IMG/VR virus record: IMGVR_UViG_3300046477_000491
Coordinates: 12,754-76,753 of that record
Reading direction: 5' to 3' (one strand)
DNA length: 64,000 nt
Source of the DNA: a virus
The notes under the pieces were generated by a model that saw only the letters and a list, made by a program, of their open reading frames with translations, made no database searches and was not told where the DNA came from. The number at the start of each line of letters is the position of its first letter. Within the stretch, counting starts at the first letter, position 1. Below are positions 1 to 62,502 of the stretch, piece by piece. A program made the translations under genes and the position numbers.

Positions 1-236
1 GCTTCCTCATCGGCGCCGGTCAGTTCGCGGACGTCGGCGTCGTAGCGGACGGATGCGTAGTCGCCGCCCAGAACATAGCCTCCCGGCAGGCTGAAATTAC
101 CGCCTGCCGGGAGGGTGATCTCGGGCTTGGCGACCTGTCCCCCGTTGTCATTCAGAATCGCCGCGATGGCGGCATTCGATGCGCTCGGGTTGGCGAGGGG
201 GTTGGTGTACCCCTCGGTATTAAGGTCGGTAGCCAC
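1..236 (-). CDS. Partial (runs off the window edge) tail assembly chaperone / baseplate hub gp26-like protein
   Basis: Manual translation from GTG 236: MATDLNTEG...SLPGGY...VRELTGADEEA; lies directly downstream of the tail tube gene. Confidence 0.6.
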   Translation of the reverse strand, partial: MATDLNTEGYTNPLANPSASNAAIAAILNDNGGQVAKPEITLPAGGNFSLPGGYVLGGDYASVRYDADVRELTGADEE

Positions 237-272
237 TGGTGTTGCTCCTAGTCGAGTCTCGGGAATCCGCTA

Positions 273-824
273 TTAGAAACTAACGGAAGACGAGCCCGTG
301 CTGTTAGCCAACTTGAACTCGAAGCCCTCGTGGGCGAGGGTCATCTGCTGGACGACGATCGCATTGGCTCCGGCGTCGAGGTCGGAGAAGGCAACCGCCG
401 TCGGCCACGCGTTGTAGACGCGGAATGCGGCCTTGGCGGGAGTGTTGCCGGAAGTCACCGGGTGGTCGAGCACCTTGATGTCGACCATGTGCCGGAATTC
501 CTGTCCGGCCTTTCCGTTGCCGGTGCCCTGGATGACGGTGAACAACTGGCGCATCCAGTCCATCATCTGGCTGTCGCCGACCGCGAGGCCCTTGGACAGC
601 GTGATCGGGGCAAAGTCGGACTGACCGGGCATCTTCTGAGTTGTCGTGTTCATTCCACCCTCACGGTATGGAATGACCTCAGTCGTGACGTTCAAGCCCG
701 AAAGGGACATGAAGCCCATGCGGGCGAAGCCCTTGATGCCCGGGTGCTGGATCTGGACCTGGAACTTGAAGTTGCGCAACGGGTCCGTTGCGATGTGCCC
801 CACGGTCGAAGTGGTCGTAGCCAT
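273..824 (-). CDS. Contractile tail tube protein (T4 gp19-like)
   Basis: DPLRNFKF, YREGG, KMPGQSDFAPITL, NAWP and LAHEG motifs; follows the sheath gene. Confidence 0.92.
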   Translation of the reverse strand: MATTTSTVGHIATDPLRNFKFQVQIQHPGIKGFARMGFMSLSGLNVTTEVIPYREGGMNTTTQKMPGQSDFAPITLSKGLAVGDSQMMDWMRQLFTVIQGTGNGKAGQEFRHMVDIKVLDHPVTSGNTPAKAAFRVYNAWPTAVAFSDLDAGANAIVVQQMTLAHEGFEFKLANSTGSSSVSF

Positions 825-838
825 CAGTCAGTTACCTC

Positions 839-2383
839 TCAGGAAGTGGCCGTCGAGTCGGTCGCGGAGGACCCACCCGAGTACTGGCCGATTTCGATGA
901 CGATGAATTCGGCCGGTGTCTGGACCGCCACACCGACGGAGATGTTCACGACACCGTTGGCCACGGAGGCGGCGGTGTTGTTCGAGGAGTCGCAGGTGAC
1001 GAAGTACGCCTGCTCCGGCGTGGTACCGGCCAGCACACCCGTCTGCATCAGGGTGAGCAGGTACTGCGTGATGACCGCGTTGATCTGGTCCCACAGGATC
1101 GAGTCGTTGGGCTCGAAGACGGCGAAGCGGGTCGCGTCGAGGATGCCCTTCTTGATCAGCATCAGCGACCGGCGGATGGAGACGTACCGGTCCGGCATGC
1201 CCGTCGACAGCGTCCGGGCGCCGTAGATGACAAAGCCCGTGCCCGGCAGCGACTTGATCACGTTGACGCCCGCGACGTTCAGAGCGTCCTGGTCGTCGTT
1301 GGAGAACCGGAACTCCGTGTCCAGCACGCCCTTGAGGACGGTGTCGATACCGGCCGGAGGCTTCTGCACACCGCGCGAGGCGTCGGTACGCGCGTACTGG
1401 CCCAGCACCGCGCCGCCAGGCGGCAGCAGACGGGCCGAACCGGACGCGGCGGTCGCCGGGTCGTTGACGATCAGCCACGGCCCGTAGACGGCCGCGTACG
1501 AGGACGCGCTCAGCGCCGAGCCACCCGTGGACATGTTCTGGAGCGAGAGCGCGTAGGAGTGAGCGTTGTCGGCCGAGGTCGACTTCACGCCGTCCACGAC
1601 GACGAACACGCTGCCCTGGTCCTCGGCCCACGCAATGACCGGGTTCAGGACGGTCGCGTCGGTGACGCCCGGCAGGTTGAGGACGAGGTTCGCATCGACG
1701 ACCTCCAGCCGCTGCGCAGCGGACGCCAGGTCCACCGCAGCGACACCGTCCGAACCGCCGGTCAGGGCGACACCGGACTGTATGGCCGGGGCGTGGGTCG
1801 GCACCCACGCGGTATTAAGCAGGCTCTGGACCTGGACGAAGGACGAGCCGGTGACCGGGGAGTTGATCAGCGCCTGGGCGTTGCGGGAGTCGGCCGGGTC
1901 CAGGGAGACATCGGTGAACCGCTCCTTGAGGAAGGCCGACGTCTCACCGCCCACGTACACGAACAGGTCGAAGCGGCCACCGCCGGACGAGGCCGCCGTG
2001 ACGTCCACGTACACCTGGTTGCCCCAGGAGCCCGGAGAGATCGCGGTGATCTTCAGGGTCGGCTCGGGAGTCACCTCAGTGTCGTCGAGGGAGACATGGG
2101 CTGCGACCGCGTCGGAGGCAGCAGCGCGCACGACGTAGGCCGCGTTGCCGCCGTTGTTGAAGTACTGGTAGACGCTGAACGGCAGGTACTCGCTCGTGTC
2201 GCCGAACCCGCCGAAGGTGGCCACATACTGCGACCAGGACGACACCAGCGTGGGGGCCAGCGGGCCGCCCTGCTTGTTCGTGCCGACGAAGGCCGCGACG
2301 GACTCGCCCGGCGTGTTTACGGTCTGGCTGAGCGGGGTCAACGTCTCCGAAATGTAGACGCCAGGCCGCTTGTAGACAGTCAT
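839..2383 (-). CDS. Tail sheath protein
   Basis: YKRPGVYISE N-terminus; YFNNGG, KPPAG, YGARTL, RYVSIRR, FEPND and PAEFIVI sheath motifs. Confidence 0.95.
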   Translation of the reverse strand: MTVYKRPGVYISETLTPLSQTVNTPGESVAAFVGTNKQGGPLAPTLVSSWSQYVATFGGFGDTSEYLPFSVYQYFNNGGNAAYVVRAAASDAVAAHVSLDDTEVTPEPTLKITAISPGSWGNQVYVDVTAASSGGGRFDLFVYVGGETSAFLKERFTDVSLDPADSRNAQALINSPVTGSSFVQVQSLLNTAWVPTHAPAIQSGVALTGGSDGVAAVDLASAAQRLEVVDANLVLNLPGVTDATVLNPVIAWAEDQGSVFVVVDGVKSTSADNAHSYALSLQNMSTGGSALSASSYAAVYGPWLIVNDPATAASGSARLLPPGGAVLGQYARTDASRGVQKPPAGIDTVLKGVLDTEFRFSNDDQDALNVAGVNVIKSLPGTGFVIYGARTLSTGMPDRYVSIRRSLMLIKKGILDATRFAVFEPNDSILWDQINAVITQYLLTLMQTGVLAGTTPEQAYFVTCDSSNNTAASVANGVVNISVGVAVQTPAEFIVIEIGQYSGGSSATDSTATS

Positions 2384-2436
2384 CTGTTTCTCCTGGGTAA
2401 AGGGGAATTCCTGGGGTTACGAATCCTGGGTCCGGA

Positions 2437-3666: not shown

Positions 3667-4475
3667 CAGAAGTACCCGCCCCACGTCTGCGAGGGGATCC
3701 CGGAGTCGTCGTCGTTCTGGTGGCCCGGCCCGATCGGCGGGAGGATCCGCGTGGGCAGGGAGTAGTCGTCGTACTCGCGCTCACGGAAGATCGGCACGAG
3801 ACGGTTGGTCGTACGGGAGACGCGGCGCAGGTTGGTGACCTCGATCGCGTACAGGCCCACGCCCATCTTCTCGCACAGCATCTTGTACCGGTCGGTGAGC
3901 ATTTCGATCTGCTTCTGGATCTGCGCGAAACGCTGGCCCCGGTCGACCGAAGTACCGTCGGCGGTCTGGACGTTGATGTCCGTTGCCGCGTCGGTGGCCA
4001 GCGCCCACATCGCCTCGGTGCATGCCAGCATGACGATCATGACGTCCTCCTCCGGCGGGAGGTTCGCGAAGTCGACGGGCTCCTCGGCGTAGCGGATGAA
4101 GCCGTTGTCGTCGCGGTACCGGGCGGAGATCGTCCGGCCCCGGTTGTGCTGGGCGAACGCGTCGTTCAGGTAGACGTCCAGCTCGTCGTCGGCGAACAGG
4201 CTGTAGGACTGCCCGGAGGCGAGCAGCAGCGCGTCCAGCGGGAGCGGGGCGTTCAGGGTGAGGATGCCGTTCAGTGCGTCCAGGACGTAGTCGCTGCTCG
4301 TCAGGACGGTCTGTGTGGTGCCGACGACCTGGACGGCCTCCAGGCCCGTGACGTTGTTCGCGCTCAGTTCGTACTCGGCGACGTCCCCGGTGCCCCGGAT
4401 GGTGTCGCGGAACGGCGTGAGCCGGTCGCCCAGCTCGCTCCTCACCCGCGACCGCAGGTCTTCAAGCGTGGCCAT
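3666..4475 (-). CDS. Head-to-tail adaptor
   Basis: MATLEDLRSRVRSELGD start and FADDEL..YL motif; neck position. Confidence 0.6.
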   Translation of the reverse strand: MATLEDLRSRVRSELGDRLTPFRDTIRGTGDVAEYELSANNVTGLEAVQVVGTTQTVLTSSDYVLDALNGILTLNAPLPLDALLLASGQSYSLFADDELDVYLNDAFAQHNRGRTISARYRDDNGFIRYAEEPVDFANLPPEEDVMIVMLACTEAMWALATDAATDINVQTADGTSVDRGQRFAQIQKQIEMLTDRYKMLCEKMGVGLYAIEVTNLRRVSRTTNRLVPIFREREYDDYSLPTRILPPIGPGHQNDDDSGIPSQTWGGYF

Positions 4476-4488
4476 TCCGCGACTCCGA

Positions 4489-4908
4489 TCAGGTATTAAG
4501 GGTCAGCGCGCCAGCGGCGATCTGAAGGGACTCGTTCGTCGCCGCCTGGAGCGGGCTGTCGATCGGCCACGCGTAGATGACGGTGCCGGTCGTGCCGGAC
4601 GCAGAGGTGACCAGCGCCGCGAAGGAGGCAGCGTCGGTCATGTCGGCGGTGAACGGGCCGTAGAACAGCAGCGCGTTGTTGGCCGTGGTCATCGGTGCGC
4701 CGGACGGCGCGGTCCAGACGACCTGCTGACGGGCGTAGCCGGGCGTGGAGACCTCCGGCAGCGCGGTCATGCTGTAGGTGCCGTCCTCCTGCGTCGGGTC
4801 GTCGATCAGCAGGGCCAGGTAGGTCGTACGCGGCGCGGCCAGAGCGATGGCCCGGCCGGTGAGCATGTCCAGGGCGTTACCGGCCCAGACGGGATTGGTA
4901 CCGGGCAT
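4489..4908 (-). CDS. Virion structural protein
   Basis: YLALL..DP and EVSTPGYARQ pattern of small beta-rich virion proteins; ends in LNT-stop. Confidence 0.55.
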   Translation of the reverse strand: MPGTNPVWAGNALDMLTGRAIALAAPRTTYLALLIDDPTQEDGTYSMTALPEVSTPGYARQQVVWTAPSGAPMTTANNALLFYGPFTADMTDAASFAALVTSASGTTGTVIYAWPIDSPLQAATNESLQIAAGALTLNT

Positions 4909-6773: not shown

Positions 6774-7634
6774 TTACGAGTACAGTCCACGCTGGTTCTG
6801 GGCTGCCTGTCCGACGCCCAACTGGCCCCGAATCTTGGCGTACTCCGACATCGGCATGTCACGGAGGTCAGAAAGGGAGTACGACTTAGTGCCCGGATCG
6901 GTGTCCATCGGTCCCGTGGTGGAATAGCCCGTGGGGCTCACACCACGCATGGAAGCACGCTGCTGAATTGCTGCCTGCTGAACCGATTCCAGAATAGCCT
7001 GGGTCTTCGCCTTGACTGTAGCGATGGAAGCCTCGACCTCTTCCGGCGAATTACCGCCGACGAAGTCGAGAAGTTCGGGAGCGATCTCGTTGGTCTCTTC
7101 ACCGACGCGACGCTGAATGTAGGTCTGGAGGTTGTTGAACTCCTGCTCCTTGGCGAACAGGGTGCGCTCCTGCTCACGCTCGCGCTCGATCTGCTCGAAG
7201 CGGGTGTTCCACTCCTGCTCCTTGACCGACAGGAGGTCCTTGACGGACAGTTCCTCCTCCGCCTGGCGCTTCGCCTGGGCCTGAGCCTCCTGGCGCTTGC
7301 GCTCCTCCTCGGCCTGGGCCTCCTCGCGCGCCTTGCGCTGGGACTCGATCTCGTCCAGGAACTTCTTGTTCTGCTCCTCGACGGTCTGAAGGCGCTTGTA
7401 CAACTTGTCCTTCTCCTCAGACCGCGCCCGCTGGATGTCCTCGGCGGTGAACCGCGCCTCGGCCGGAGGGGTGGCAGGGGTCTCGACGACAGCGGCCGGG
7501 ACGACGACAACGGGGTCGCCACCCTCGCCGGGCTGCGGAGCGCCACCTGCGATGGCGTGGATCGGACGGCCGTCCTTGCGGTACCCGAGAATCACGTCGG
7601 CGGGCACCGAGATGCCCGAGGTATTAAGCGTCAT
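6774..7634 (-). CDS. Capsid scaffolding protein
   Basis: E/K/Q-rich coiled coil between portal and capsid genes; C-terminal MPMSEYAKIR. Confidence 0.8.
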   Translation of the reverse strand: MTLNTSGISVPADVILGYRKDGRPIHAIAGGAPQPGEGGDPVVVVPAAVVETPATPPAEARFTAEDIQRARSEEKDKLYKRLQTVEEQNKKFLDEIESQRKAREEAQAEEERKRQEAQAQAKRQAEEELSVKDLLSVKEQEWNTRFEQIEREREQERTLFAKEQEFNNLQTYIQRRVGEETNEIAPELLDFVGGNSPEEVEASIATVKAKTQAILESVQQAAIQQRASMRGVSPTGYSTTGPMDTDPGTKSYSLSDLRDMPMSEYAKIRGQLGVGQAAQNQRGLYS

Positions 7635-7646
7635 GGGGACGAACTC

Positions 7647-9368
7647 CTAGTCGGTACTTTTGTCCGGGTCGCGGCGAAGCCCAGCACGCGGGCCGTACGC
7701 CTGTGTCACGATTTCGTTAGTCATCTTCTGAATCTCAGGCGCAGTGATGTTGCCGAGTTCGACACCACCGGGAAGCGTCACCGGATTCGGACCACCAGGC
7801 TGCGGGCCGACGGGGTTTCCATCTGCATCAGTCTGGGGTGCAGGCGCCTCCGCCCCTTCAGGCGGCATTCCCGTCAACTGGAGAATACTCGAATCGATCT
7901 GCGCCTTTAGCATTCGCAGAGCGCCCTGCTGCTTGGCGTCCTCGATCTGCTCCTCGAATATCTCGCGGACCTTCTCGTCCGGGAACTCCTCGCCCAAATC
8001 GTGGAGGGCTCCGCGCATGGACTCAAGGCCCATCGACATCTTCGCCTGGATCTCGTTCAACTTGATGAGGGTGTCGACCGGGAGAGGGGCAGGCCATTCA
8101 CACTCGGTGAAGTAGGCCATCGGGTCGAGAACATCCACCATCGGCGGCTGATCGTCCTTCATGATTCCCTCGGTGGAGGGGTCGTACAGCCGGGATTCCG
8201 GCTCGAAGGTGAACAGCGTCTTGAGGATGAGTTCGTTGACCTTCTGGAGGCCGACGGAGTACTGCATCTTCTTCTGGTCGTAGCGGGACATCATCGGCCG
8301 GTACATGATCGCGAGGGCGACACCGGACGTATTCGACGCGGGCTGCATTTGACCGAGCGCCGTTTCCGGAACGCCCGTGATCTCATGCATGGAACGCTTG
8401 ATCATCTCAAGGTACTGAAGCGGCCCGGCGAGATCCACGCCATTCTCCAGGTTATACACTTGGGCTTCCTTGGGAAGTCCGCCCCACACCTTGCGTGGGC
8501 CCTTCTCAAGGTTGCTCGCTTTCGCGCCGCTGATGATCGTTACGGGGGCTGCGTGGTAATTGATGATGTCGCTGATATCCGTCGCCTTCTCGTTGTACTC
8601 ACGGTTCAGCGAGATGATGTCGGCGATGTCCGACAGACCCCACGGAGAACCAGAGACCTGAGCATTGGCGATGTGCACGACCGGAATGGTCCCGAGAGGG
8701 TTCGGCCGGGAGTCGATCAACTCGTCATTCAGGTACTCCTCGATCGAGTCGTCCGTCAGGACCTCGACATAGGTGTACACCGAACGCGTCCCGTCTTCAC
8801 CCGTCGCCCAGAAGCGGTACTTCAGTTTGAATCGGATCAGACGGTCCCGGTCGTGGGGGTGCCACTCCGGGAAGCAGAAGGAAGCGTTCAGGGGAAGGAT
8901 GCGTACGCGGCCTGGGTGTAGTTGTCCCGTGCTGTCTTCGAATGCAGGCTCATACGCGACCTTGACGAAGGAGTCCCCGGAGATGCCGCCCTGCTGGCCC
9001 ATCTCCCACAGCAACTGCTCCTTGCGGTTGTCGACCTCCCAGGCCCTCTTCAAAAGGCCCGGGATGATGTGCTCGTACTGCTTGACGCTCTTGAAGTGAA
9101 CGCCCCTGCCGAATGTGAAATTGTTAATGTAGTCGGCGAACGCCTTCACGTAGTTGAACGTGATCTGAGCCTCGCCCGCTTCTCTCCGGTAACCCCAGTG
9201 ATGACCCAGGTAGTATGCAAAGTTCTGGCTATACCGGTTCAAGCGAGGCCCGTGCACCTCAAACTCCTCATCGGCCAGTTCGACAAGGCCGAGAGGAGAG
9301 ATCGACACCGTAAGGTCCGACCCCGAAGCCCGCATGCTGGGGCTCGCGAATGAGATTGCACCGCTCAT
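7647..9368 (-). CDS. Portal protein (SPP1 gp6-like)
   Basis: NPLGTIPVVHIAN, WGLSDIADIISLN and SNTSGVAL motifs. Confidence 0.9.
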   Translation of the reverse strand: MSGAISFASPSMRASGSDLTVSISPLGLVELADEEFEVHGPRLNRYSQNFAYYLGHHWGYRREAGEAQITFNYVKAFADYINNFTFGRGVHFKSVKQYEHIIPGLLKRAWEVDNRKEQLLWEMGQQGGISGDSFVKVAYEPAFEDSTGQLHPGRVRILPLNASFCFPEWHPHDRDRLIRFKLKYRFWATGEDGTRSVYTYVEVLTDDSIEEYLNDELIDSRPNPLGTIPVVHIANAQVSGSPWGLSDIADIISLNREYNEKATDISDIINYHAAPVTIISGAKASNLEKGPRKVWGGLPKEAQVYNLENGVDLAGPLQYLEMIKRSMHEITGVPETALGQMQPASNTSGVALAIMYRPMMSRYDQKKMQYSVGLQKVNELILKTLFTFEPESRLYDPSTEGIMKDDQPPMVDVLDPMAYFTECEWPAPLPVDTLIKLNEIQAKMSMGLESMRGALHDLGEEFPDEKVREIFEEQIEDAKQQGALRMLKAQIDSSILQLTGMPPEGAEAPAPQTDADGNPVGPQPGGPNPVTLPGGVELGNITAPEIQKMTNEIVTQAYGPRAGLRRDPDKSTD

Positions 9369-15496: not shown

Positions 15497-15618
15497 GCTG
15501 CCTCCTGTTGCGGGGTGTCGCTGCGGACCTCAGCGTATCGACGTCAAGCGACCTTGGCAATCCCCTTCACAAGGTTCGAAGGTAGACGTAATCCGGAAGC
15601 CGTAGTAGCGTTCCTGGC

Positions 15619-15771
15619 ATGACGAACCTGACAACGCTTAATACCTCGGGCTCCAACGAGCCCCAGGTCACCGTGACCCTCACCAACAACCGGATGGAAG
15701 ACAGCCGCTGGAACCGGCTCCTCACCATCCTCTTCACCCCGCAGGACGAAGACGCGCCCGCAGCGAGCTAG
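15619..15771 (+). CDS. 50-aa ORF upstream of the serine recombinase (not in the ORF track)
   Basis: MTNLTTLNTSGSNEPQVTVTLTNNRMEDSRWNRLLTILFTPQDEDAPAAS; strong third-position C/G bias. Confidence 0.55.
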   Translation: MTNLTTLNTSGSNEPQVTVTLTNNRMEDSRWNRLLTILFTPQDEDAPAAS

Positions 15772-15894
15772 CACAACTCCCCCACACAAACGGGCCGTTC
15801 CCCATATACTGCGCTGATCAACAAGACGGGCCTGCCCACCGCGAGTCTAGGCGCGGGGACAGGCCCTTGATCAGTCTGTAAAGGAGACTGAGCC

Positions 15895-18038: not shown

Positions 18039-18039
18039 T

Positions 18040-37873: not shown

Positions 37874-38199
37874 CAGGTACCACCCTTCTTGGCCTTCTCC
37901 CAGGCCGACTTGGACACGCACACGTGCCCGGTCTTCTTGCCGTCGCGGAGGTCGAGGCGCCAGCACTCCGGGTCCGTCTGCGAGATGGGGATGTACATCG
38001 AGATCGTCGAGTAGCAGACCCTCGACGAGCCGGATCCCGAGCACTGCGTCGTGTAGATCGGCTGCATGTACGTGTAGGTGTCTTCCGGTACGTACCGCTT
38101 GCCGGTGATCGTGCCGTGGTCGAGATCCGACCCACAGCCGGTGAGGACGAGCGCCCCCACGAGCGCGGCCGAAGCCGCGTAGGTATTAAGCCGCTTCAC
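37870..38199 (-). CDS. Lipoprotein
   Basis: Signal peptide with lipobox LTGC. Confidence 0.75.
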   Translation of the reverse strand: MKRLNTYAASAALVGALVLTGCGSDLDHGTITGKRYVPEDTYTYMQPIYTTQCSGSGSSRVCYSTISMYIPISQTDPECWRLDLRDGKKTGHVCVSKSAWEKAKKGGTW

Positions 38200-54920: not shown

Positions 54921-55304
54921 TTACTTGGTAGACGTTGGTGTTTCCGTCTCCGTCTTCACGGGGCACGGAATCTTGACCTGCACGGAATGCGTATGGGTGA
55001 GTCCATACACAGGCGCGTAAGGCGTGGCCGAGGACGTGGGTGCGGGTACTGCGGGCGAGGGCCCGATCACGAGCGACACCTTGCACGTACCCGTATTCCG
55101 CTGGGCAGGCGCCTCGGCATACCGGGTGACTGTGGCGACGGGCTGCGGATTGGAATCCCCCTCGGTCCCGGAAGAATCCGACCTGGAAACTCCGGTATTA
55201 AGCCCGGTGGAATGCTGCTCGGGGATCACGGAAATTCCGATCGCAGGAATCGCGAGAATTCCGATTGTGATGAGGGCGGCCTTTACTCGGCGGAATCTGT
55301 TCAT
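54921..55304 (-). CDS. Membrane-anchored or secreted protein
   Basis: MNRFRRVKAALITIGILAIPAIG signal/anchor. Confidence 0.55.
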   Translation of the reverse strand: MNRFRRVKAALITIGILAIPAIGISVIPEQHSTGLNTGVSRSDSSGTEGDSNPQPVATVTRYAEAPAQRNTGTCKVSLVIGPSPAVPAPTSSATPYAPVYGLTHTHSVQVKIPCPVKTETETPTSTK

Positions 55305-55462: not shown

Positions 55463-57001
55463 CTAACCTTCCTGGTTGTAGAAAGTTGGTACATCGACGA
55501 TTTCCGCGTCGATGAATCCGCTTCCGGACTCGATCATCCGGTCCGCCGAGACAGGATTGTCGAAGGCGGTCACCTGCTGCCCTGCGTCTTTTCCGAACAG
55601 ACGGCTGATCATACCGGCCTGGGCACCATTCCCCTTAGCCTCCAGTTTCACGGAGAAGGAGTCCTGCTCCAGTTCGGTCTTCACCTTCACCAGTTTCTGG
55701 AGCCGGTCGATCTCGCCGGAGAGGTTCGGATCCGCGTAACCGCCGGTCATATCCTCGACCATCTTCATGAAGAGGACCCGCTGTGCCTGCATCTCGATGA
55801 GCGAATTCTGGAGCGCGCCCATCTGCTGCTTGCTCTTCACCTCGACCGGGATGTCGTACGCGCAGTTGGCATCCTTGTCGAAGGCCGGGCACTTCGAGGA
55901 GAGGAAGCAGGACGAGCAGACCCGCATGGACTGCGAGCGGACCGTGACCAGCGGGACGTCGCGTTCCTTGTTCACGCCGTCGTCGGGGTCGGTGTAGACC
56001 TCCCGCTCCTGGACCACGCCGATCACCGGCAAGTTGGTACGCGGGCGGTCCCGGCGAGGGGCGGGAGTTGCTACGGCGTTGACCACTTCTCCGGTCGTCG
56101 TATCAACTGTGCCCCCCTGCGTTTGAGCGAAAGCGGAGAGTACCCCTGAAGCGGAAGTAGTAACTGCTTCGGTCTCGGGCGCGCGGTGCTGCTCGATGGA
56201 GGCCGCCAACTGCTGCCACGACCAGATGGTGAACCGCAGGACCTCGTTGTTGTCCCCGGCCTCTATCTTGTCGGGGTCGAAGCCCGCTTCCTGGAAAAGC
56301 GTGCGGTGCCGCTTACGGGCCTGCTCCTTGTATTTCTTCGGGTACCGCTTCAATTCCCGCCCGGTCCAGACGATGGTGTCACCGTACTGCGAGGGGGAAA
56401 TCCAGGAGGTGGACGCGACGGAATCCCAGGTGACGGCAGCCATTTCCGCAGGCTTCGTCATTGCGACGCCGTGGAGCAGGGTTCCGTATTTCCGGGTGAT
56501 CTCGTTGAGAACGGGAGCGAGATTCCGTCCGTCCAAATCCGTCTGGGTAATTCCGACACGCTTATACCGCTGGGCGAGGCGGTCGAGTTCATCGACGCCC
56601 CATTCCGCGTGCCAGATGGGAAGGAACTTGTCCTCCGGCAGGTCCTCCCAGAAATCCTCGCGCCGGGCCTCTATCCATTCGCGTCCGAGAACGACCGCGT
56701 CGAACTCGGACACCATATTAAGCGAGTCGATGTTCTGCTGGACGAAGGCTTCATAATGCGCGGCGATCTCCTTGAGTTCGCCTATCGAGTACGTGTCGTC
56801 CTCGGCCTTGTTCACGGTGTAGGCGCCGGAGTCGAGGAAGACCTTCTGACCCTCCAGGTAGTGGTCCTCGATGAGCCACGGCCGGGAGAACTTGGTCCGC
56901 CTGCGCAGGCCCATATAACTGAGGGAGACGTTCTCGACGCCTTCCTCGGCCAGCATCTTGCGCCAGCCGGGAATCTCTGAACCGCCGAAGTACAGTTCCA
57001 C
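55463..57001 (-). CDS. TGT/DpdA-like TIM-barrel protein fused to a Cys4 plus helical C-terminal domain
   Basis: LYFGG, LSY, VFLDSGAYT, LPIWH, LHG and DSVASTSW; C-terminal CSSC..C..C. Confidence 0.7.
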   Translation of the reverse strand: MELYFGGSEIPGWRKMLAEEGVENVSLSYMGLRRRTKFSRPWLIEDHYLEGQKVFLDSGAYTVNKAEDDTYSIGELKEIAAHYEAFVQQNIDSLNMVSEFDAVVLGREWIEARREDFWEDLPEDKFLPIWHAEWGVDELDRLAQRYKRVGITQTDLDGRNLAPVLNEITRKYGTLLHGVAMTKPAEMAAVTWDSVASTSWISPSQYGDTIVWTGRELKRYPKKYKEQARKRHRTLFQEAGFDPDKIEAGDNNEVLRFTIWSWQQLAASIEQHRAPETEAVTTSASGVLSAFAQTQGGTVDTTTGEVVNAVATPAPRRDRPRTNLPVIGVVQEREVYTDPDDGVNKERDVPLVTVRSQSMRVCSSCFLSSKCPAFDKDANCAYDIPVEVKSKQQMGALQNSLIEMQAQRVLFMKMVEDMTGGYADPNLSGEIDRLQKLVKVKTELEQDSFSVKLEAKGNGAQAGMISRLFGKDAGQQVTAFDNPVSADRMIESGSGFIDAEIVDVPTFYNQEG

Positions 57002-57027: not shown

Positions 57028-57819
57028 TTACTGCGGGGGCTGGACGAGGCTCTTCGGGAAGAGGCCGGGCTGGGTGACTCGGGGCTTGCGGGCCGGGGCC
57101 GGACCACCCTTCGACGGTGCGGCCTTGGCGGCCTGGCCGAACTGCTGCTGGGAGCGGACCGGGGCGACCTCGCTCGGGCCGAACAGGCCCCGCTGGGTGA
57201 CGCGCTGCGGCTTCTGGGCGGCCGGGGCCGCCGAGGTATTAAGCGGGGCTGCGGGAGCGGCCGAGGTGCCTTCCGGCTTGGGCCGGATACCGATCTTGCG
57301 GGCACCGCGCGAGCCGTCGGGGTTGTAGGTCGGGTAGGTGCGGATCTGGTGGCCCTGGCCGTGGTCACGCCACTCGGCCTGGCCGCCGGGCGTCGGGGAC
57401 GGGCTGGCAGTCGAGTGGGCGCCCGCACCGAAGGTGTCGTTGTACGCGGCCCAGCCGCCGGATGCGGACGGCTTCTGCTGCGCCTGGATGGAGTTCATGC
57501 GCTGGTTGAAGGTGTGCAGCAGGTCGGTCGCGGCGGTGGAGTGCTCCGCGTGCCAGCCGTAGGAGTCCGAGACGTGGTCCTCGCCGACGCGCTTGATCTC
57601 CTCGCGGGCGGCCGGGGACGCCTGCGGGGCGGCGGCCTTGCTCTTCTGGCCCTTGACGCGGATCTTGATGCGGGCGTTGGCAGGCTGCTGGCCCTGCTTG
57701 GCGTTCTCCAGGTCGCCCAGGCGCTCCTCGACGGAACGGTGGGAGCCGGGGAACTGGAGCGGGGAGAGCCAGCGCTCCTTGAACTTGCTGGTGATCGCGT
57801 GGATGCCTTCGACGCTCAT
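57028..57819 (-). CDS. Low-complexity Q/A/P-rich protein
   Basis: Repeated RVTQ.GLF; coupled start. Confidence 0.6.
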   Translation of the reverse strand: MSVEGIHAITSKFKERWLSPLQFPGSHRSVEERLGDLENAKQGQQPANARIKIRVKGQKSKAAAPQASPAAREEIKRVGEDHVSDSYGWHAEHSTAATDLLHTFNQRMNSIQAQQKPSASGGWAAYNDTFGAGAHSTASPSPTPGGQAEWRDHGQGHQIRTYPTYNPDGSRGARKIGIRPKPEGTSAAPAAPLNTSAAPAAQKPQRVTQRGLFGPSEVAPVRSQQQFGQAAKAAPSKGGPAPARKPRVTQPGLFPKSLVQPPQ

Positions 57820-58604: not shown

Positions 58605-59438
58605 TCACCCGTGATCGTGCTCGTGGAGACCGGTGCGGTGCGCGGTCTCGTGGGCGTTGAAGGCGTGCTGCGGGTTCATGTTCGGGCTGTAGCCGTGGTG
58701 CTCGGCCAGGTGCGCGACGATGTCCTCGGGCGCCGTCTTCTTCTTGATCTTCGGCAATGTCTCGGCCTTGAACTGGTCCAGGTTGAGCACGTGCGCGCCG
58801 ACGTGGGTGTCTCCCCGGCCGCGCGCTTCGGCGAGCCGGTGGTGCGCGTCGGCGACGTACGGTGTCCCGTTCTGGACGAGGACCTTGACGTGCGGGTGGT
58901 CGGGGTCGAGCGGGCCGGTGATGTACGAGTGGGAGCCGGTCTCGAACGCGGTCTGGCCGGTGTGCAGCGGCGAGCTGGTGCTGATGCTGGTGACCTTGGC
59001 GTGCTTGTTCCAGAACGCTTCGTTGCTGTCGCTCATCTGCGGGCCGTGCTTGACGTACCAGCGGTCACCGATCTTGGGGTCGACGATGTTGCCGTGGCCG
59101 TCCAGGTGCCCGAACTGCTGCGGGTTGTGCGGCGGGCCCATGACCATCTGCCCCTCGGCCTGGGGGTAGTTGGTGCGCTCCTCGTCGTGGATGAGGTCGT
59201 GGTCGCGGGGACTGCCGATGGCGGTGACCTTGGTGTGCATCCCGCCCGGGTGGGGAGCGGGATGCGGGATATTAAGTTTCCCTGGCGTGTAGTCCGTCTG
59301 AAGGTGCAGCGGAGTGTCACGCGTCAGGTGGTACTTGGCGCGCAGCGCGGTCTGCTTCTGGTTCTGTGGGGACACGCGGCTGCCGAGCGGGACCGGCAGG
59401 GCGGTCTGCTCGAACTGTGGCCCGAGGGGGTTGGCCAT
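58605..59438 (-). CDS. Protein with a ParB/Srx-like domain
   Basis: PHVKVLVQNGTPYVADAHHRLAEARGRG resembles the ParB DGHHR motif. Confidence 0.6.
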   Translation of the reverse strand: MANPLGPQFEQTALPVPLGSRVSPQNQKQTALRAKYHLTRDTPLHLQTDYTPGKLNIPHPAPHPGGMHTKVTAIGSPRDHDLIHDEERTNYPQAEGQMVMGPPHNPQQFGHLDGHGNIVDPKIGDRWYVKHGPQMSDSNEAFWNKHAKVTSISTSSPLHTGQTAFETGSHSYITGPLDPDHPHVKVLVQNGTPYVADAHHRLAEARGRGDTHVGAHVLNLDQFKAETLPKIKKKTAPEDIVAHLAEHHGYSPNMNPQHAFNAHETAHRTGLHEHDHG

Positions 59439-60430
59439 TACGACCTCCGGTAGGGGGTGTTCCAAAGAGCCGCCTTCGCGAGTGCGGTGGCGGCGTCATC
59501 GAGCGGAGCCCCGTAGAGGTCGGTCTCCTGCGCCTTGTGGGCCTCGACGTCCGCTGTGGCCAGGGAGTTGAGTGCCTGGACCGTGCCTGCCTGCTTGTGT
59601 GCCTGCCAGCGGAAGTTGTAGTAGTCGCCGTAGCCGGATCCCCCGGGGCCGAATGCCTGCTTGCGGCCGAGGTGGATGTCGTCGAAGAGGGCCTTGGCCT
59701 GCTCGACGACGATCTTCTGGGAGGCGAGGGAGTTGTGCCATACGGCGGAGTTGGGTGAGGCACTGGAGGCGGCCGAGCGCAGGTGGTTGTAGCGCTCGAC
59801 GAGGGTGCGGGCGTGGTCTTCCTCGCGCTGCACGGCGCCCCACCAGTGCTTCGGGTACAGGCTGTGGGGGTCTGCGGGCAGGGACGGAGGCCGGATGTCC
59901 CAGCGGTCGCGGGTGAGGTTGTAGGCGGCGTACGGATTGATGGCCGCGATGGACTGCGACGTCGTACCCGGGTTCAGGTAGTAGGTGACCTCGTATACCT
60001 GGCCGTGGAAATCAGTGGTCGCGGTGCGCGGCCACAGGTTCTTCTTCAGTTCCGAGTTCATGAGGTCGGAGAATTCCGCCTCGGAGATGCCCTGGTAGGT
60101 CGGGTTCATCTCGTAGAACTTCGGGAAGTCAATTCCGAAGAGTACGTCGAGGTCGCCGTTTCCCCGGTCCCCGGCCCACTGGAAAGAGATTCCGGACCCG
60201 GCGAGCCAGGCGGCCAGCCAGATGCGTACGCCCTGGTAGTGGCCGTCGAGGTAGGTATTAAGGACGCCGAGGATGTGGTCGCGGACGTCCGGCTTGATGT
60301 GGTCGCCGTCGAAGATGTGCGGGTCGAGCCCTGCCTGGGGTGCGCTGAAATACCCGGAGGCGCCCGAGTGAATGTCGGGCTGCTGTCCCTGGGTTATTGC
60401 TCGATTGAGGTAGAACTCGTATCCGGCCAT
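59438..60430 (-). CDS. Pol-beta-fold nucleotidyltransferase-like protein
   Basis: WLAGSG.S.QW...GDLDVLFGID, EVTYY and AAYNL..DRW. Confidence 0.7.
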   Translation of the reverse strand: MAGYEFYLNRAITQGQQPDIHSGASGYFSAPQAGLDPHIFDGDHIKPDVRDHILGVLNTYLDGHYQGVRIWLAAWLAGSGISFQWAGDRGNGDLDVLFGIDFPKFYEMNPTYQGISEAEFSDLMNSELKKNLWPRTATTDFHGQVYEVTYYLNPGTTSQSIAAINPYAAYNLTRDRWDIRPPSLPADPHSLYPKHWWGAVQREEDHARTLVERYNHLRSAASSASPNSAVWHNSLASQKIVVEQAKALFDDIHLGRKQAFGPGGSGYGDYYNFRWQAHKQAGTVQALNSLATADVEAHKAQETDLYGAPLDDAATALAKAALWNTPYRRS

Positions 60431-60519: not shown

Positions 60520-60912
60520 TCAGAGTTTCAGTCGGGATCGCAGCGCGGCTTCCTGCTGCTGCTGTTGCATGGCCTGGCCCATCATCATCATGGCCTGCTG
60601 GGTCCGGGAGGCCGTCTCCATGACTTCCAGGTCCTTGAGCACGACGGAGGCCGCACCGTAGATGTCGTCAGGGGTGGCGCCACGCCGGGGGACGAACTGC
60701 TGGGTGAGGTCGGAGGTGGCCACGACCGCTCCGTCCAGGCCGACGGCGACGAGGAACGCCGTGGTGACGGGGGTACCGACCTCGTCCTCGGAGGGAGGGT
60801 TCTCCTCGGCCATCTTGGCCAGAGCCTCGCGCTGCTCGGGGGTGAGGTCTTCGGTATTAAGCCCCTTGTCGGCGGTGGGGGTCGTCTGGCCGAGGATCGG
60901 GATGTTGGGCAT
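60520..60912 (-). CDS. Hypothetical protein
   Basis: ORF track; RBS GGAG. Confidence 0.65.
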   Translation of the reverse strand: MPNIPILGQTTPTADKGLNTEDLTPEQREALAKMAEENPPSEDEVGTPVTTAFLVAVGLDGAVVATSDLTQQFVPRRGATPDDIYGAASVVLKDLEVMETASRTQQAMMMMGQAMQQQQQEAALRSRLKL

Positions 60913-60941
60913 GCAGTGCTCCAGGTGTGGTTCGGGTGGGG

Positions 60942-61427
60942 TTACTTGTAGAGTCCGGCCTTCTCGCGGGCCGACTGGACCACGAGGGAGTGGACGGGGC
61001 AGAACTCGCAGAGGTAGCGGTCCTGGGCCGACTTGTAGCGCGGGAGACCGGCGGCCTTGCGCTCGGCTGCGGTGTCCGGCGTGAGCCGCTTGGAGGCGGT
61101 CTTGTAGTCGTTGCAGCCGGGGTTGCGCAGGTGCTTGGCCCAGCAGGCGTGGGCGTCTTCCTGGAAGGTGTTCTTGGCCTCGTAGAACGAGGGGTCGAAT
61201 CCGGTGTGCCCGGTGGTCTCGCGGATCTTGGCGATGATCGAGTCGCGGGTGCTCGGGGAGTCCCAGTGCTTCTTCTCCACGCGCAGCATCGGGTGTGCGA
61301 TGTGGTTGGGGTGCTTCTGGACCAGGGCTTCGAGGAGCCAGTCCCGGCTCGGGTCGCCCTCGTAGTCGGGCAGTTCCTCCAGGGATCCGCAGGTCTTACA
61401 GAGCAGGAGCCGTACGTGCTCGGACAT
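60942..61427 (-). CDS. Cys-rich hypothetical protein
   Basis: CKTC, C...H...C and LCEFCP. Confidence 0.7.
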   Translation of the reverse strand: MSEHVRLLLCKTCGSLEELPDYEGDPSRDWLLEALVQKHPNHIAHPMLRVEKKHWDSPSTRDSIIAKIRETTGHTGFDPSFYEAKNTFQEDAHACWAKHLRNPGCNDYKTASKRLTPDTAAERKAAGLPRYKSAQDRYLCEFCPVHSLVVQSAREKAGLYK

Positions 61428-61467
61428 GTTGTCCTTCCTCGGGGGGCTGTTCAGGGACCAAACATAG

Positions 61468-61504
61468 CATCCCCATTACGCCTTGGGAAGACGTAATGGG
61501 GATG
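61468..61504. terminator. Hairpin containing the operator palindrome
   Basis: CATCCCCATTACGCCTT-GGG-AAGACGTAATGGGGATG. Confidence 0.7.
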
Positions 61505-61521
61505 GCGTAGTCGGGAAGGGG

Positions 61522-62502
61522 TTACTTGCCGGTGGCCAGGTAACGGCCGAGCAGCACGTAGGAGTCACCGGCCGTGGCACCGAGGACGGCGACCTTCTTG
61601 CCGGAGACGGCCACCGTGCCGGACTTGGCGTGCGCGTAGCCCAGCGCGGTGTTGGCCGGACCGCCGACCGCGACGACGACGTCACCGGCAGCCAGAGCGG
61701 CCTTGGCCACGTCCACACGGCCGGTGGCGACAGCACCCTTCGGCTGGAACGCATCGGTCGCCGCCGCAGCGGTCATGGAGTCGATGTTCTCGCCGAAGAT
61801 CACCATCGTGTACGCCTTCGCAGGGGTTGGAGCAGGAGCGGGAGCGGGGGTCGGCTTGGGCGCCGGGGCGGGGGCCGGAGTCGGCTTGACGACAGCCTTG
61901 GCCGGGATGGCCAGGGCCTTCCAGGTATTAAGGTCGCCGTTCAGCAGGTTCTGGTCTAGGCCGCCGACGATGCCGTACTGGTGCAGGGTCCACGTCGCCC
62001 AGCCAGCGGTGAGCGGGTGCCCGGCCGGGTTGTTCGGGTCGGCCACCCACAGCGGGTAGGACCGCAGTTCGGTCTTCTGCGCCTCCGTGGCCACACCGAG
62101 CAGGCCGGTGAGGTACGAGGTGTACGTGTACAGCAGCGGAGACGCCTTCGTCTGCGCCTTCACGTACTTCAGCCACGCCAGGGCGTAGTGCAGCCGCTGG
62201 CTCCAGGAGCCCTCGGACGCTTCCAGGTCGAGGACCAGGACCTCGCCGACCTGCGCGCCAGCGGCGGACAGGAAGTGCTTGGCCTCGGTCACCGCGTCCT
62301 GGGTCGGGTGGGCGAAGTGGTAGTGGCCCAGGGGCTTCTTCGCCGCCCGGACCGCCTTGACGATGCTCGCGTGCTTCGCGTCGCCCGTGTGCTCGCCCTC
62401 GGACGCCTTCGCGATGATGAAGGCGTTGTTCTTGCTGGCGATGGCCGACGCGATGTGCGCGGCGTCGTTGTTGTTGGAAAGGTCGACTCCGTGGAGGGAC
62501 AC
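61522..62502 (-). CDS. Endolysin, GH25 muramidase with a C-terminal putative cell-wall-binding domain
   Basis: GVDLS, KASEG, GHYHFA, LDLE, LWVA, LHQY and LDQN; PA/PT linker; VAVGG. Confidence 0.9.
   Translation of the reverse strand: MSLHGVDLSNNNDAAHIASAIASKNNAFIIAKASEGEHTGDAKHASIVKAVRAAKKPLGHYHFAHPTQDAVTEAKHFLSAAGAQVGEVLVLDLEASEGSWSQRLHYALAWLKYVKAQTKASPLLYTYTSYLTGLLGVATEAQKTELRSYPLWVADPNNPAGHPLTAGWATWTLHQYGIVGGLDQNLLNGDLNTWKALAIPAKAVVKPTPAPAPAPKPTPAPAPAPTPAKAYTMVIFGENIDSMTAAAATDAFQPKGAVATGRVDVAKAALAAGDVVVAVGGPANTALGYAHAKSGTVAVSGKKVAVLGATAGDSYVLLGRYLATGK

Follow-up and report, generated by a model that had tools for sequence, protein, structure and literature searches.

The 9-mer and the genes that carry it

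The window analysed here, 64,000 nt in length, is part of a 76.7-kb contig from a temperate Streptomyces myophage (genome about 105 kb), a prophage relative of which is resident in Streptomyces sp. NPDC002088. Lysogeny-type genes (Tyr integrase, Ser recombinase and an XRE repressor-like gene) are accompanied by replication and recombination genes for a DnaG-type primase, DnaB, RecA and nucleases. The first-pass annotation had listed one recurrent 9-mer; GGTATTAAG was indeed present at all 17 of the plus-strand positions given, with a reverse copy at 15637, and these 18 window matches compare with 0.03 expected from dinucleotide shuffles, bearing out the enrichment it claimed. Two near-matches, 59268 (CTTAATATC) and 56714 (CTTAATATG), also proved real, being in frame and followed by strong hairpins. 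Seven genomes were compared (six phage contigs and the NPDC002088 prophage), in which a sister lineage (B) bears CTTCATACC in place of the CTTAATACC of lineage A. The elements are as follows, in window coordinates.

194–224, minus strand: element; motif CTTAATACC at 216–224 with a hairpin downstream; codon 5 in a gene for 288 aa that lies between the tail tube gene and a long gene (1027 aa) in the usual position of a tape-measure gene
1791–1819, minus strand: element; motif 1811–1819 and an 8-bp hairpin; codon 189 of the 514-aa tail sheath gene; restricted to the A lineage, B genomes reading CTCGCCACC there
4449–4500, minus strand: element; a 139-aa gene ends with the motif (4492–4500) as its final three codons and then TGA, 13 nt ahead of the next ATG (4475); weak hairpin
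7601–7628, minus strand: element; motif 7620–7628 and a 7-bp hairpin; codon 3 of the scaffold gene, which starts ATG ACG CTT AAT ACC; B genomes have CTTCATACC at the identical codon
15637–15663, plus strand (the only one): element; motif 15637–15645, codon 7 in an ORF of 50 codons lying between the genes for Tyr integrase and Ser recombinase; 6-bp hairpin from nt 12; among relatives the ORF varies by in-frame indels only
24994–25053, minus strand: element; motif 25045–25053, in frame with MazG and 45 nt before its called start, probably codon 7 of a longer MazG ORF with a GTG start
25793–25815, minus strand: element; motif 25807–25815, 7 codons short of the stop of a 109-aa gene; hairpin 3' arm GGGGG at Shine-Dalgarno distance from the following gene's GTG
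27109–27133, minus strand: element; motif 27125–27133 and a hairpin; codon 67 of a 413-aa exonuclease gene (phrog_284)
32308–32364, minus strand: element; motif 32356–32364; codon 110 of the polynucleotide kinase-phosphatase gene; hairpin weaker and farther away
33783–33823, minus strand: element; motif 33815–33823; codon 108 of the T4-type RNA ligase gene; 12-bp hairpin retained in 7/7 genomes
36196–36223, minus strand: element; motif 36215–36223 and a 7-bp hairpin; codon 3 of a 151-aa gene that opens ATG ACG CTT AAT ACC
37335–37425, minus strand: special locus; motif 37417–37425 in the tiny ORF GTG GTC CGG CTT AAT ACC TAG
38164–38190, minus strand: element; motif 38182–38190; codon 4 of a 109-aa gene; hairpin GCGGC-UUCG-GCCGC from nt 12
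55152–55202, minus strand: element; motif 55194–55202 in a conserved low-GC3 ORF missed by the gene caller, with a predicted membrane segment and then LNT (LHT in B genomes)
56681–56722, minus strand: variant element CTTAATATG at 56714–56722; codon 94 of a TGT/DpdA-like gene; 9-bp hairpin, -22.5 kcal/mol
57217–57243, minus strand: element; motif 57235–57243; codon 193 of a 263-aa gene; 6-bp hairpin from nt 12
59237–59276, minus strand: variant element CTTAATATC at 59268–59276; codon 55 of a 277-aa gene; 11-bp hairpin from nt 12
60211–60262, minus strand: element; motif 60254–60262; codon 57 of a 330-aa gene; A-lineage-specific; hairpin weak and distant
60804–60861, minus strand: element; motif 60853–60861; codon 18 of a 130-aa gene; weak hairpin
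61894–61932, minus strand: element; motif 61924–61932; codon 191 of the GH25 lysin gene; hairpin -17.6 kcal/mol

Strand, reading frame and the lineage switch

In the full contig CTTAATACC occurs 21 times and is by far the most over-represented k-mer under an order-3 Markov model. With genes called by our own GC3- and codon-based procedure, 17 of the 21 copies fall within called genes, all of them sense and in frame as CTT-AAT-ACC, and the remaining four have the identical frame in small or uncalled ORFs. The claims of a sense-only string and a fixed Leu-Asn-Thr frame therefore hold for window and contig alike, and across the seven genomes 188 of 188 exact copies in called genes are sense and in frame 0, as likewise are the variant copies CTTCATATC/ACT/ACG. 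The codon check proposed earlier returned 17 LNT tripeptides versus 4.3 expected, all 17 encoded by the motif. In a second count LNT tripeptides numbered 35 (5.8 expected) and LHT tripeptides 33 (3.5 expected), an excess indicating that proteins have been altered to carry the motif.

Each genome of the lineage holds 20–47 copies (density about one per 2.6 kb); the genes that carry them serve replication, virion structure, RNA repair and lysis. About 85–90% of copies are within ORFs; about two thirds lie deep in genes, with no apparent coupling role, and many stand 2–6 codons past a start codon with a conserved Shine-Dalgarno (SD) sequence. Gene borders do carry an excess of copies, as proposed, though a modest one of about 3–4 fold. 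By the contig gene calls, the large untranslated gaps of the middle and late regions are without the motif; such gaps, where copies would be cost-free, are not preferred. The stretch from 38.2 to 55.2 kb does lack copies, as had been noticed, but a largest-gap test on the relatives was only weakly significant (p 0.03–0.4). The early block has TTGACA-type boxes and zero exact motif copies. The host chromosome showed no enrichment of the motif, which is thus not a host Chi. The core of the element is CTT[A/C]ATA plus a pyrimidine, with G preferred just 5' of the C in CUU. A second motif, TTACGGCTT, came out of the same k-mer analysis as over-represented and with a strand bias.

At 32 of 58 orthologous loci the two lineages differ by the one base that separates CTTAATACC from CTTCATACC, which implies a putative phage-encoded reader of position 4. 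Coding-strand copies in a single frame in dozens of unrelated genes, each with a small hairpin behind it, and a one-letter change in the sister lineage at more than 30 shared places, together suggest an undescribed, phage-specific control signal on messenger RNA. Orthologue alignment revealed that sites are gained by point change, such as CTGAACGCC to CTTAATACC at 4492, new sites emerging at Leu-His-x or Leu-Asn-x codons already present. With the host chromosome unenriched, this agrees with the earlier view of a nucleotide-level, phage-specific signal in one orientation.

The frame had been ascribed to avoidance of TTA and TAA. This fails as a full cause, given that CTTCATACC contains zero stops and zero TTA in all three frames and its genic copies are nevertheless all sense and in frame; embedding opportunity does not account for the frame either. 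In an A-type genome, sense frame 0 makes up only about 24% of the sense-strand positions that are 2–3 substitutions from CTTCATACC, and its near-cognates are commoner in the other frames and antisense than in frame 0. The cheapest embedding, antisense GGT-ATG-AAG, is unused in any called phage gene, and the annotation was right that antisense GGT-ATT-AAG has zero copies in genes. The rule could be a cost effect, as the other frames require ATA, TCA or TTA, read by minor tRNAs, whereas frame 0 consists of U-ending codons decoded by major tRNAs. A tRNA-Asn(GUU) is encoded in 6/6 phage contigs and in the NPDC002088 prophage; a tRNA-His(GUG) is additionally present in three of the four CAU-type genomes and absent from the fourth, G005.

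The downstream hairpin and the gene junctions

A GC-rich hairpin lies downstream of the motif, most commonly starting at base 12; the first-pass annotation had overlooked it. The 36 nt 3' of the motif fold at -12 to -14 kcal/mol versus -8.8 for controls (z -6.4 to -8.4 in six genomes), and the upstream flank has no excess folding in the same comparison. Motif bases 3–8 are unpaired, the 5' arm of the hairpin peaks at nt 13–16, and G is favoured at nt 12–13, where the helix starts. Of 268 copies, 106 have a helix that begins exactly at nt 12; a start anywhere in nt 10–13 is seen in 68% of copies versus 25% of controls. This fixed spacing indicates that the motif acts in single-stranded nucleic acid; folds of about equal stability on the sense and antisense strands leave the hairpin's strand unproven. 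Compensatory changes in the hairpin are no commoner than in control windows, synonymous sites of the hairpin window display no extra conservation, and the hairpins of young sites are only marginally stronger than those at the orthologous places that lack the motif (p 0.08).

Of 32 between-gene copies, 16 have an SD and an in-frame start no more than 20 codons upstream, against 11.6% of random intergenic positions (p 1e-7). Those inspected lie in tiny ORFs that end in an overlap of their stop with the following start codon (TAATG, TGATG, ATGA or GTGA), among them a Met-Arg-Leu-His-Thr mini-ORF split from the recA start in three B genomes, and junction hairpins enclose the SD or start codon of the following gene. 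At 37417 the motif is followed immediately by a stop, TAG or TAA depending on the genome, and its bases 4–9 pair with a downstream GGGTATT; in B genomes the partners are CATACC and GGTATG, the A-U pair having changed to C-G in compensatory fashion along with the lineage. This co-change of the anti-motif argues that the motif is present in RNA and that its pairing matters. Two further hairpins follow, the last over the SD and ATG of a membrane + HTH_17 gene (36653–37339), in which no lineage-specific recognition residues were found.

Candidate mechanisms and known systems

We tentatively favour an mRNA element that ribosomes run into during translation and that a putative phage-specific factor recognises. 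It would comprise a single-stranded CUU-[A/C]AU-A-Y-N, about two free bases and a GC-rich stem-loop, with copies apparently missing from the early ORFan block. On the ribosome, the P site and the mRNA entry/helicase site are separated by about the same 12 nt that are counted from the C of CUU. When a ribosome reached the hairpin, CUU would thus occupy its P site and the wobble-read codon AAU or CAU its A site, a geometry that would produce a programmed pause. Since the junction hairpin holds the SD or start codon of the next cistron, dwell time at a junction element may set the translation level of that cistron, as in erm-type leader attenuators. The exact U at two wobble positions and the all-or-none switch look more like direct recognition of bases by a protein than like decoding.

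Possible, though doubtful, is an operator for an RNA-binding protein or a sequence-specific endoribonuclease that acts independently of the ribosome and reads single-stranded CUU[A/C]AUAY beside the helix. Such a protein might lock the hairpin, block ribosomes and hide the next SD, or a cut might leave RNA protected by a 5' hairpin, the fixed frame being merely the cheapest embedding in an ORF. Sense-only copies agree with this, a single-stranded motif at fixed spacing from a hairpin is typical of protein–RNA sites, the one-base switch at 32 loci fits protein co-evolution, the anti-motif hairpin at 37417 could mask a site, and young sites do arise at pre-existing Leu-His or Leu-Asn codons. Actinobacterial RNase E prefers cutting before C, so the G before the C of CUU would suit it. 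However, Pfam and PHROGs searches of the phage proteins gave no RNA-binding or RNase candidates, cost-free untranslated gaps are not preferred, intergenic copies are enriched for an SD and start close upstream, and it is hard to see what the phage would gain from cutting inside about 30 of its own ORFs. Among the options listed in the first-pass annotation, that of an mRNA site for protein binding or cleavage survives best, while its promoter option is weakened but still conceivable.

As a middle/late promoter, which is unlikely, the motif would be a -10-like box for host RNA polymerase and a putative phage factor, transcripts starting at about nt 12–13 and beginning with a protective 5' stem-loop. 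The motif tracks gene direction, is lineage-specific like phage promoter/polymerase pairs, prefers G at nt 12–13, occurs about once per 2.6 kb and has no exact copy in the TTGACA-bearing early block; that early-region gap is, however, statistically weak. Moreover, searches that included Pfam found neither sigma-70 region 2 nor RNA polymerase domains, copies 2–6 codons past an SD-bearing start cannot serve that gene, large untranslated middle/late gaps lack the motif, a junction transcript from nt 12 would be SD-less, and the compensatory pairing at 37417 needs the motif in RNA.

Very improbable is a single-stranded DNA signal, read on one strand beside a DNA hairpin; it might mark nicking, lagging-strand priming or, in the manner of Chi, the action of the phage's own recombination machinery (RecA, Cas4-like, SNF2). 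A hairpin with an adjoining motif is the usual format of HUH nickase and priming signals, the strand bias is near-total, either strand folds equally and the phage encodes the DnaG-type primase, DnaB, RecA and nucleases; but the lone reversed copy (15637), conserved in most relatives, follows local gene direction, no HUH enzyme was found in the phage, and the frame rule, the tiny ORFs and the junction hairpins holding an SD or start are left unexplained. Least probable of all is a double-stranded DNA site at which a monomeric repressor on the asymmetric 9-mer blocks elongating RNA polymerase in the lysogen: the phage is temperate, has an XRE repressor-like gene and carries dozens of asymmetric, transcription-oriented sites that co-vary between lineages, but most are in ORFs rather than short intergenic spaces, a fixed-spacing hairpin has no role in double-stranded DNA binding, TTACGGCTT is over-represented and strand-biased too, early genes apparently lack sites, and the HTH_17 gene near 37417 has no lineage-specific recognition residues.

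The analogy with L5-type stoperators offered earlier accordingly fits poorly. The stoperators of Cluster A mycobacteriophages, double-stranded DNA 13-mers that a monomeric repressor (L5 gp71-type) recognises, are located at promoters and in short intergenic spaces (PMC9283540, PMC6550527). Shared features are dozens of short, asymmetric, transcription-oriented sites in a temperate actinophage and a lineage-linked sequence change; unlike stoperators, the phage core is 7–9 nt, lies mostly in ORFs in a single frame with a fixed-spacing hairpin, is apparently missing from early genes and has no known cognate repressor. In Cluster K mycobacteriophages, start-associated sequences occur 5' of start codons and take in the SD (PMC3203893). 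They too are a repeated asymmetric actinophage motif linked to translation starts, whereas the present motif follows the start codon or lies far into genes, in frame.

The T4 late promoter TATAAATA is a short box found tens of times per genome and absent from early genes. The present motif resembles it as an AT-rich, oriented box of 8–9 bp with tens of copies per genome and apparently none in early genes, but many copies stand just past start codons, untranslated gaps are never favoured, and no sigma-like factor was detected in the phage. Lambda nut, once or twice per genome in untranslated leaders, joins a single-stranded boxA to a boxB hairpin with a conserved loop. Likewise, a conserved single-stranded RNA box beside a hairpin would here be read on the nascent transcript in a phage-lineage-specific manner, although the hairpin sequence is free, dozens of copies are in ORFs and no NusG-like gene was found in the phage. 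Recoding signals, such as -1 frameshift sites and the bacterial SECIS, combine a codon string with a downstream hairpin. The fixed frame, the location in coding sequence and a structure about 5 nt past the presumed A-site codon are similar; the phage sites differ in having no slippery X XXY YYZ heptamer or UGA and no open alternative frame beyond them, gene calls staying in frame 0.

The ermC/cat leader-peptide attenuators are single-locus and triggered by antibiotic and nascent peptide, whereas the phage string recurs 20–47 times, mostly deep in long genes. At several phage junctions there is nonetheless a likeness, in that a short ORF with the motif immediately precedes a hairpin hiding the SD or start of the following gene, and a ribosome held there would open that hairpin.

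Counts, definition and lineage switch of the motif

The nine-base word GGTATTAAG, which the first-pass annotation had placed at 17 plus-strand positions of the window and once in reverse at 15637, was recovered at each of them, giving 18 copies compared to 0.03 expected from dinucleotide shuffles. The window spans bases 12,754-76,753 of a 76,753-bp IMG/VR contig; this contig as a whole contains 21 copies, 20 in the same direction, and k-mer counting over the contig, a check proposed by that annotation, returned this word as the most over-represented k-mer (20 vs 0.16 under an order-3 Markov model). Nearly all genes of the contig lie on the minus strand, as do 20 of the 21 copies read in sense, and the sole reversed copy lies within a plus-strand ORF; the relatives display the same arrangement. 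The claim of many asymmetric sites oriented with transcription was therefore borne out in this genome (G000) and in its relatives. The gene map is derived from GC3/codon-score gene calls, in which start codons are approximate.

Single-mismatch counts defined an invariant core, CTT[A/C]ATA, followed by C or T at position 8 and mostly C at position 9. Two near-matches reported previously, at 59268 (CTTAATATC) and 56714 (CTTAATATG), turned out to be variant motifs of this kind, and the genomes carrying C at position 4 (C-type) contain the additional variants CTTCATATC, CTTCATACT and CTTCATACG. With variants included, the core occurs 41-47 times in sense and 1-3 times in antisense in C-type genomes. 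The flanks show weak preferences for a preceding G, for U/A at nt 10-11 and for G at nt 12-13 (numbering from the C of CTT). The largest-gap test for a motif-free early region was weak. Other over-represented, strand-biased words in the window are GCTTGACAA, a -35-like box, and AAGCCGTAA/TTACGGCTT; these form a motif network separate from that of the 9-mer. The Shine-Dalgarno (SD)-containing word CCGACTAGGAG at 7635-7655 and 237-257 (minus strand) precedes the starts of the scaffold gene and of the gene after the tail tube, is kept in both lineages and resembles a start-associated sequence.

Genes of the phage assigned with Pfam and PHROGs, and two further loci of the window
Head and lysogeny genes: terminase, tyrosine integrase, large serine recombinase, and an XRE HTH_31+DUF5753 protein on the opposite strand
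Nucleic-acid genes: MazG, Lsr2, polynucleotide kinase-phosphatase, T4-type RNA ligase, RlaP, exonuclease
Other genes: TGT/DpdA-like protein, GH25 lysin
14423-17991: tyrosine integrase beside a divergently transcribed large serine recombinase with a C-terminal DUF4096 (IS4/5 transposase N-terminal)
55463-57001, minus strand: 512-aa TGT/DpdA-like protein (phrog_887, E 1.7e-78) without a Pfam match

The sheath and tube genes resemble those of the Streptomyces phages Alone3 and pSt2308, distant phages that contain one chance motif copy apiece. Relatives are common in rhizosphere metagenomes, complete ones being 105-110 kb, and one is carried as a prophage by Streptomyces sp. NPDC002088 (stretch L122, G011 contig C18, about 64-182 kb). 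The replication module (DnaB, primase, SNF2 helicase, PolA, RNR, RecA and ThyX) is absent from the present contig and is the motif-densest region of the complete relative G001.

The A-type motif CTTAATACC was found in relatives with terminases at least 92% identical. A sister group, about 78-82% identical in nucleotide sequence, contains no CTTAATACC and carries the C-type motif CTTCATACC at the same places instead, as exemplified by the scaffold start, ATG-xxx-CTT[A/C]ATACC, and by the reversed copy beside the integrase. Whole genomes use either the A-type or the C-type word, 27-38 times each and in no case with more than one copy reversed. Flank clustering resolved 58 loci, of which 32 are common to both types, 17 are C-type only and 9 are A-type only. 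Comparison of orthologues, also proposed in the first-pass annotation, revealed that sites are gained by point changes, not by insertion: the site at window 4492 is derived from CTGAACGCC, and A-type genomes have CTG/TTG-CAC-xxx at the positions of new C-type sites. More distant relatives (G006, G007 and G009, 60-64% terminase identity) have neither motif nor tRNAs. G007 (L091-L096) displays an oriented word of its own, GTCGTACCTA, eight times with none reversed, and G006 (L086-L090) an SD-like word, AGAGGAGAG, eleven times.

The NPDC002088 prophage contains 36 C-type copies despite a terminase 95% identical to that of the window, whose neighbours are A-type, and is thus mosaic. A single A-type copy in this prophage lies 12 nt ahead of a C-type copy. 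The rest of the 10.7-Mb NPDC002088 genome contains about 25 copies of CTTCATACC over both strands and zero of CTTAATACC. A Chi- or KOPS-like polar sequence of the host was therefore rejected, as the host chromosome is neither enriched nor skewed. The density in the prophage compared to the host, together with the lineage swap, shows that the signal is phage-specific and selected, with a putative reader that separates A from C at position 4.

Reading frame, small ORFs and tRNAs

Of the 21 copies in this genome, 17 lie in called genes, all in sense and in frame as CTT-AAT-ACC, and the remaining four lie in small or uncalled ORFs with the frame unchanged. Copies inside called genes number 33/38 in G001 and 29/31 in G004, the others again being in small ORFs. 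In four C-type genomes, genic copies are likewise 100% in sense and frame 0, including those at C-type-only genic loci. Codon use at Leu-Asn-Thr tripeptides, suggested earlier as a check, agreed with a nucleic-acid-level signal: there are 17 such tripeptides compared to 4.3 expected and the motif encodes all 17, so the proteins have changed to carry it.

The previous explanation of the fixed frame, that other sense frames would introduce TTA or a TAA stop, cannot hold for the C-type, since CTTCATACC contains neither. Opportunity in other readings is also ample: of the places in an A-type genome that are no more than 2-3 substitutions away from CTTCATACC, sense frame 0 has 142, the two remaining sense frames have 96 and 349, and antisense GGT-ATG-AAG has about 390. 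The frame rule may partly reflect translation cost, because frame 0 uses U-ending codons and major tRNAs while other frames need ATA, TCA or TTA. An anti-motif small RNA at window 15637 was rejected, as the locus varies in the manner of a protein-coding ORF, by indels that keep the frame.

With respect to gene borders, some copies lie 14-77 nt upstream of starts, and many lie deep in genes or 2-6 codons past a start whose SD is conserved. The border excess is modest (6 copies within codon 10 vs 1.5 expected; 8 within 15 codons of the stop vs 2.7), and internal copies make up about two thirds of the total. Outside called genes, an SD and an in-frame start lie no more than 20 codons upstream in 16/32 copies compared to 11.6% of random intergenic positions (p 1e-7), and those non-genic copies that were inspected belong to tiny ORFs, each with a stop overlapping the following start.

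Examples of tiny ORFs carrying the motif
Junction after the tape-measure gene: ATG CGG CTT AAT ACC ... TAATG
A second tiny ORF: GTG ACG CTT AAT ACC ... ATGA

At the start of recA in three C-type genomes (G003, G004 and G005), the first ten codons are detached as a mini-ORF, Met-Arg-Leu-His-Thr-...-stop (for example stretch L081, G004 reverse complement 31429), and recA restarts at a TTG or GTG overlapping or adjoining its stop; the mini-ORF is coupled to this new start. In A-type genomes and in the NPDC002088 prophage, recA is a single uninterrupted ORF.

The central codon of the motif matches the tRNA set of the phages, which is notable.

tRNA locus of the window
28356-29554, minus strand: tRNA operon Pro-TGG, Phe-GAA, Leu-CAA, Asn-GTT, broken by a c-di-AMP riboswitch (Rfam RF00379, 54.8 bits)

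A tRNA-Asn(GUU) is encoded by all six phage contigs and the NPDC002088 prophage. An 86-nt tRNA-His(GUG) occurs in three C-type genomes out of four (G004 L081:8973-9058, G003 and the NPDC002088 prophage L138) and in none of A-type. It has a long variable arm, a class II shape unusual for tRNA-His, and G-1/C73, and its acceptor, T and variable stems display compensatory changes among the three phages. A tRNA as the sole reader was nevertheless ruled out, because the C-type genome G005 has the CAU motif without tRNA-His. In the frame-dependent reading considered below, a lineage-specific reader might be tied to the phage Asn/His tRNAs, which belong to the G34-U35 family of TGT enzyme substrates, or might be tied to the phage TGT/DpdA-like enzyme. 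Among the neighbouring proteins scanned around the latter gene, no preQ0 synthesis genes were detected by Pfam.

Downstream hairpin and the leader at window 37417

The motif is followed by a GC-rich hairpin. In each of six genomes, the 36 nt 3' of the core fold at -12 to -14 kcal/mol compared to -8.8 at random in-frame positions of the same genomes (z -6.4 to -8.4), while structure in the 36 nt 5' of the motif is slightly below controls. Pairing-probability profiles showed that motif bases 3-8 are open (0.13-0.39 vs 0.62) and that bases 13-16 form the 5' arm of the helix (0.82 vs 0.60). The first helix begins at nt 12 in 106/268 copies, and at nt 10-13 in 68% of copies compared to 25% of controls. 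Fold stability is about equal on the sense and antisense strands; an antisense intrinsic terminator was rejected, as the stem and UAUU are parted by four non-U bases.

The hairpins lie within coding sequence, and their sequences and loops vary freely between sites. Further tests added no support for it: consensus folds at orthologous sites are more stable than control windows, but compensatory pairs are in no excess over control windows (12 vs 8-10), synonymous sites in the hairpin window have no extra conservation, and hairpins at young sites are just slightly stronger than the motif-less orthologues (p 0.08). The hairpin is thus kept as a property and not as a sequence. At gene borders, the SD or start of the next gene lies within the hairpin.

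Hairpins at gene junctions
Window 25807: GGGGG in the 3' arm, 8 nt ahead of GTG
Overlap junction: GGCGGAGC ahead of a TGATG overlap
recA end: GGCCGCC-UGAU-GGUGGCC across the stop codon of recA and the start that follows it

At window 37417 the motif closes a tiny ORF, GTG GTC CGG CTT AAT ACC TAG. The upstream sequence is unrelated between genomes, and in each of them an ORF enters the motif in frame, its stop codon following at once (TAG; TAA in one). Motif bases 4-9 pair with GGGUAUU downstream; the C-type pairing partners are CAUACC and GGUAUG, A-U having changed to C-G in a compensatory manner. As judged from this covariation, the locus shows that the motif exists in RNA and that its pairing matters there; an anti-motif close by was found at this locus only. 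Two further hairpins follow, the last of which covers the SD and ATG of the membrane and HTH_17 gene.

Gene behind the three-hairpin leader
36653-37339, minus strand: conserved 228-aa protein with several predicted membrane helices and a C-terminal excisionase/MerR-type HTH (HTH_17)

Possible modes of action and known systems

We tentatively favour, at less than even confidence, an mRNA element that is met by translating ribosomes. When CUU occupies the P site and the wobble-read NAU codon the A site, a helix that starts at nt 12 stands at the entry/helicase site of the ribosome. A pause there would keep the 5' arm inside the ribosome and release the SD of the 3' arm in the fashion of an erm attenuator. 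The lineage switch requires a reader of motif position 4, which would be phage-encoded. It is possible, if rather doubtful, that the signal is frame-dependent, comprising the three-codon string CUU, NAU, AYN plus the hairpin and having no effect unless decoded by a ribosome. Such a signal would amount to a programmed pause or recoding code across the genome, with which the phage times its middle and late proteins.

An RNA-binding or RNA-cleaving protein acting independently of translation appears unlikely. A short promoter whose transcripts start with the hairpin is improbable: some copies do precede genes, but others lie just past start codons, and the RNA pairing at window 37417 argues against it. 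Moreover, neither Sigma70_r2 (in G000, G001 and G004) nor an RNA polymerase domain (among roughly 70 proteins scanned) was detected, although very divergent factors could escape both searches. A signal in single-stranded DNA is very improbable. A double-stranded DNA stoperator, the likeness raised in the first-pass annotation, is hardly credible, since the orientation of many asymmetric sites with transcription is shared but the location inside genes and the hairpin are not, stoperator sites being at promoters and in short intergenic spaces, where a monomeric immunity repressor binds them as double-stranded DNA (PMC9283540), and the fixed spacing of the hairpin argues for a single-stranded target.

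Candidates for the reader were sought in the phage genes. Pfam and PHROGs gave no annotation for the early block, and counts of fixed residues between the A and B (C-type) lineages gave no clear candidate, because the replication module is covered by one A genome only; clade-specific genes are numerous, and the comparative screens were under-powered. The membrane and HTH_17 protein was rejected as reader, as it has no lineage-specific recognition residues. The sequencing runs with relatives are all rhizosphere DNA contigs, with no RNA runs among them, and the exact 9-mers in the literature were primers or unrelated sequence only, among the matches listed.

An action on translating ribosomes would make the element a phage-wide regulatory code in codons, a control layer undescribed for phages; a frame-dependent codon-level signal would, if true, be new in kind, and the natural specificity switch between A and C would make the reader genetically mappable. 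As a promoter or an RNA-protein operator, the element would still reveal the regulon and the timing logic in widespread, large temperate Streptomyces phages that are experimentally unstudied. It would also offer a compact orthogonal cis-element pair for Streptomyces engineering. Because the sequenced isolate Streptomyces sp. NPDC002088 carries a C-type prophage, the question is directly testable if that prophage is inducible.

Among known systems, -1 frameshift sites have structure 5-9 nt after the shift site, and here the helix lies 5 nt past the NAU codon. The motif as a -1 frameshift site was rejected, as CUU AAU ACC and CUU CAU ACC disallow -1 re-pairing of tRNAs (no X XXY YYZ), and no alternative frame is open: coding statistics and gene calls stay in frame 0, and the -1 frame of the A-type is an immediate UAA. 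The erm/cat leader attenuators, in which the ribosome stalls at a defined leader codon, likewise combine a short translated ORF with a hairpin hiding the next SD or start, as at six junction loci (the tape-measure gene and the next gene, L3, L4, the recA start in B genomes, window 25807 and the recA end), but do not fit the copies inside long genes, which are roughly two thirds of the total. Lambda-type nut sites pair boxA with a boxB hairpin of conserved loop in an untranslated leader and work with an N-like protein; here the hairpins and loops vary and the copies lie in ORFs, and no NusG-family gene was found among the phage genes searched. The start-associated sequences of Cluster K (PMC3203893) have part of the motif anatomy in common, not all. 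Each of the closest systems, namely stoperators, Cluster K start-associated sequences, leader attenuators, codon-plus-hairpin recoding signals, nut sites and T4-type late promoters, thus shares only part of the anatomy, and the element is filed as a phage-specific dispersed cis-regulatory element.
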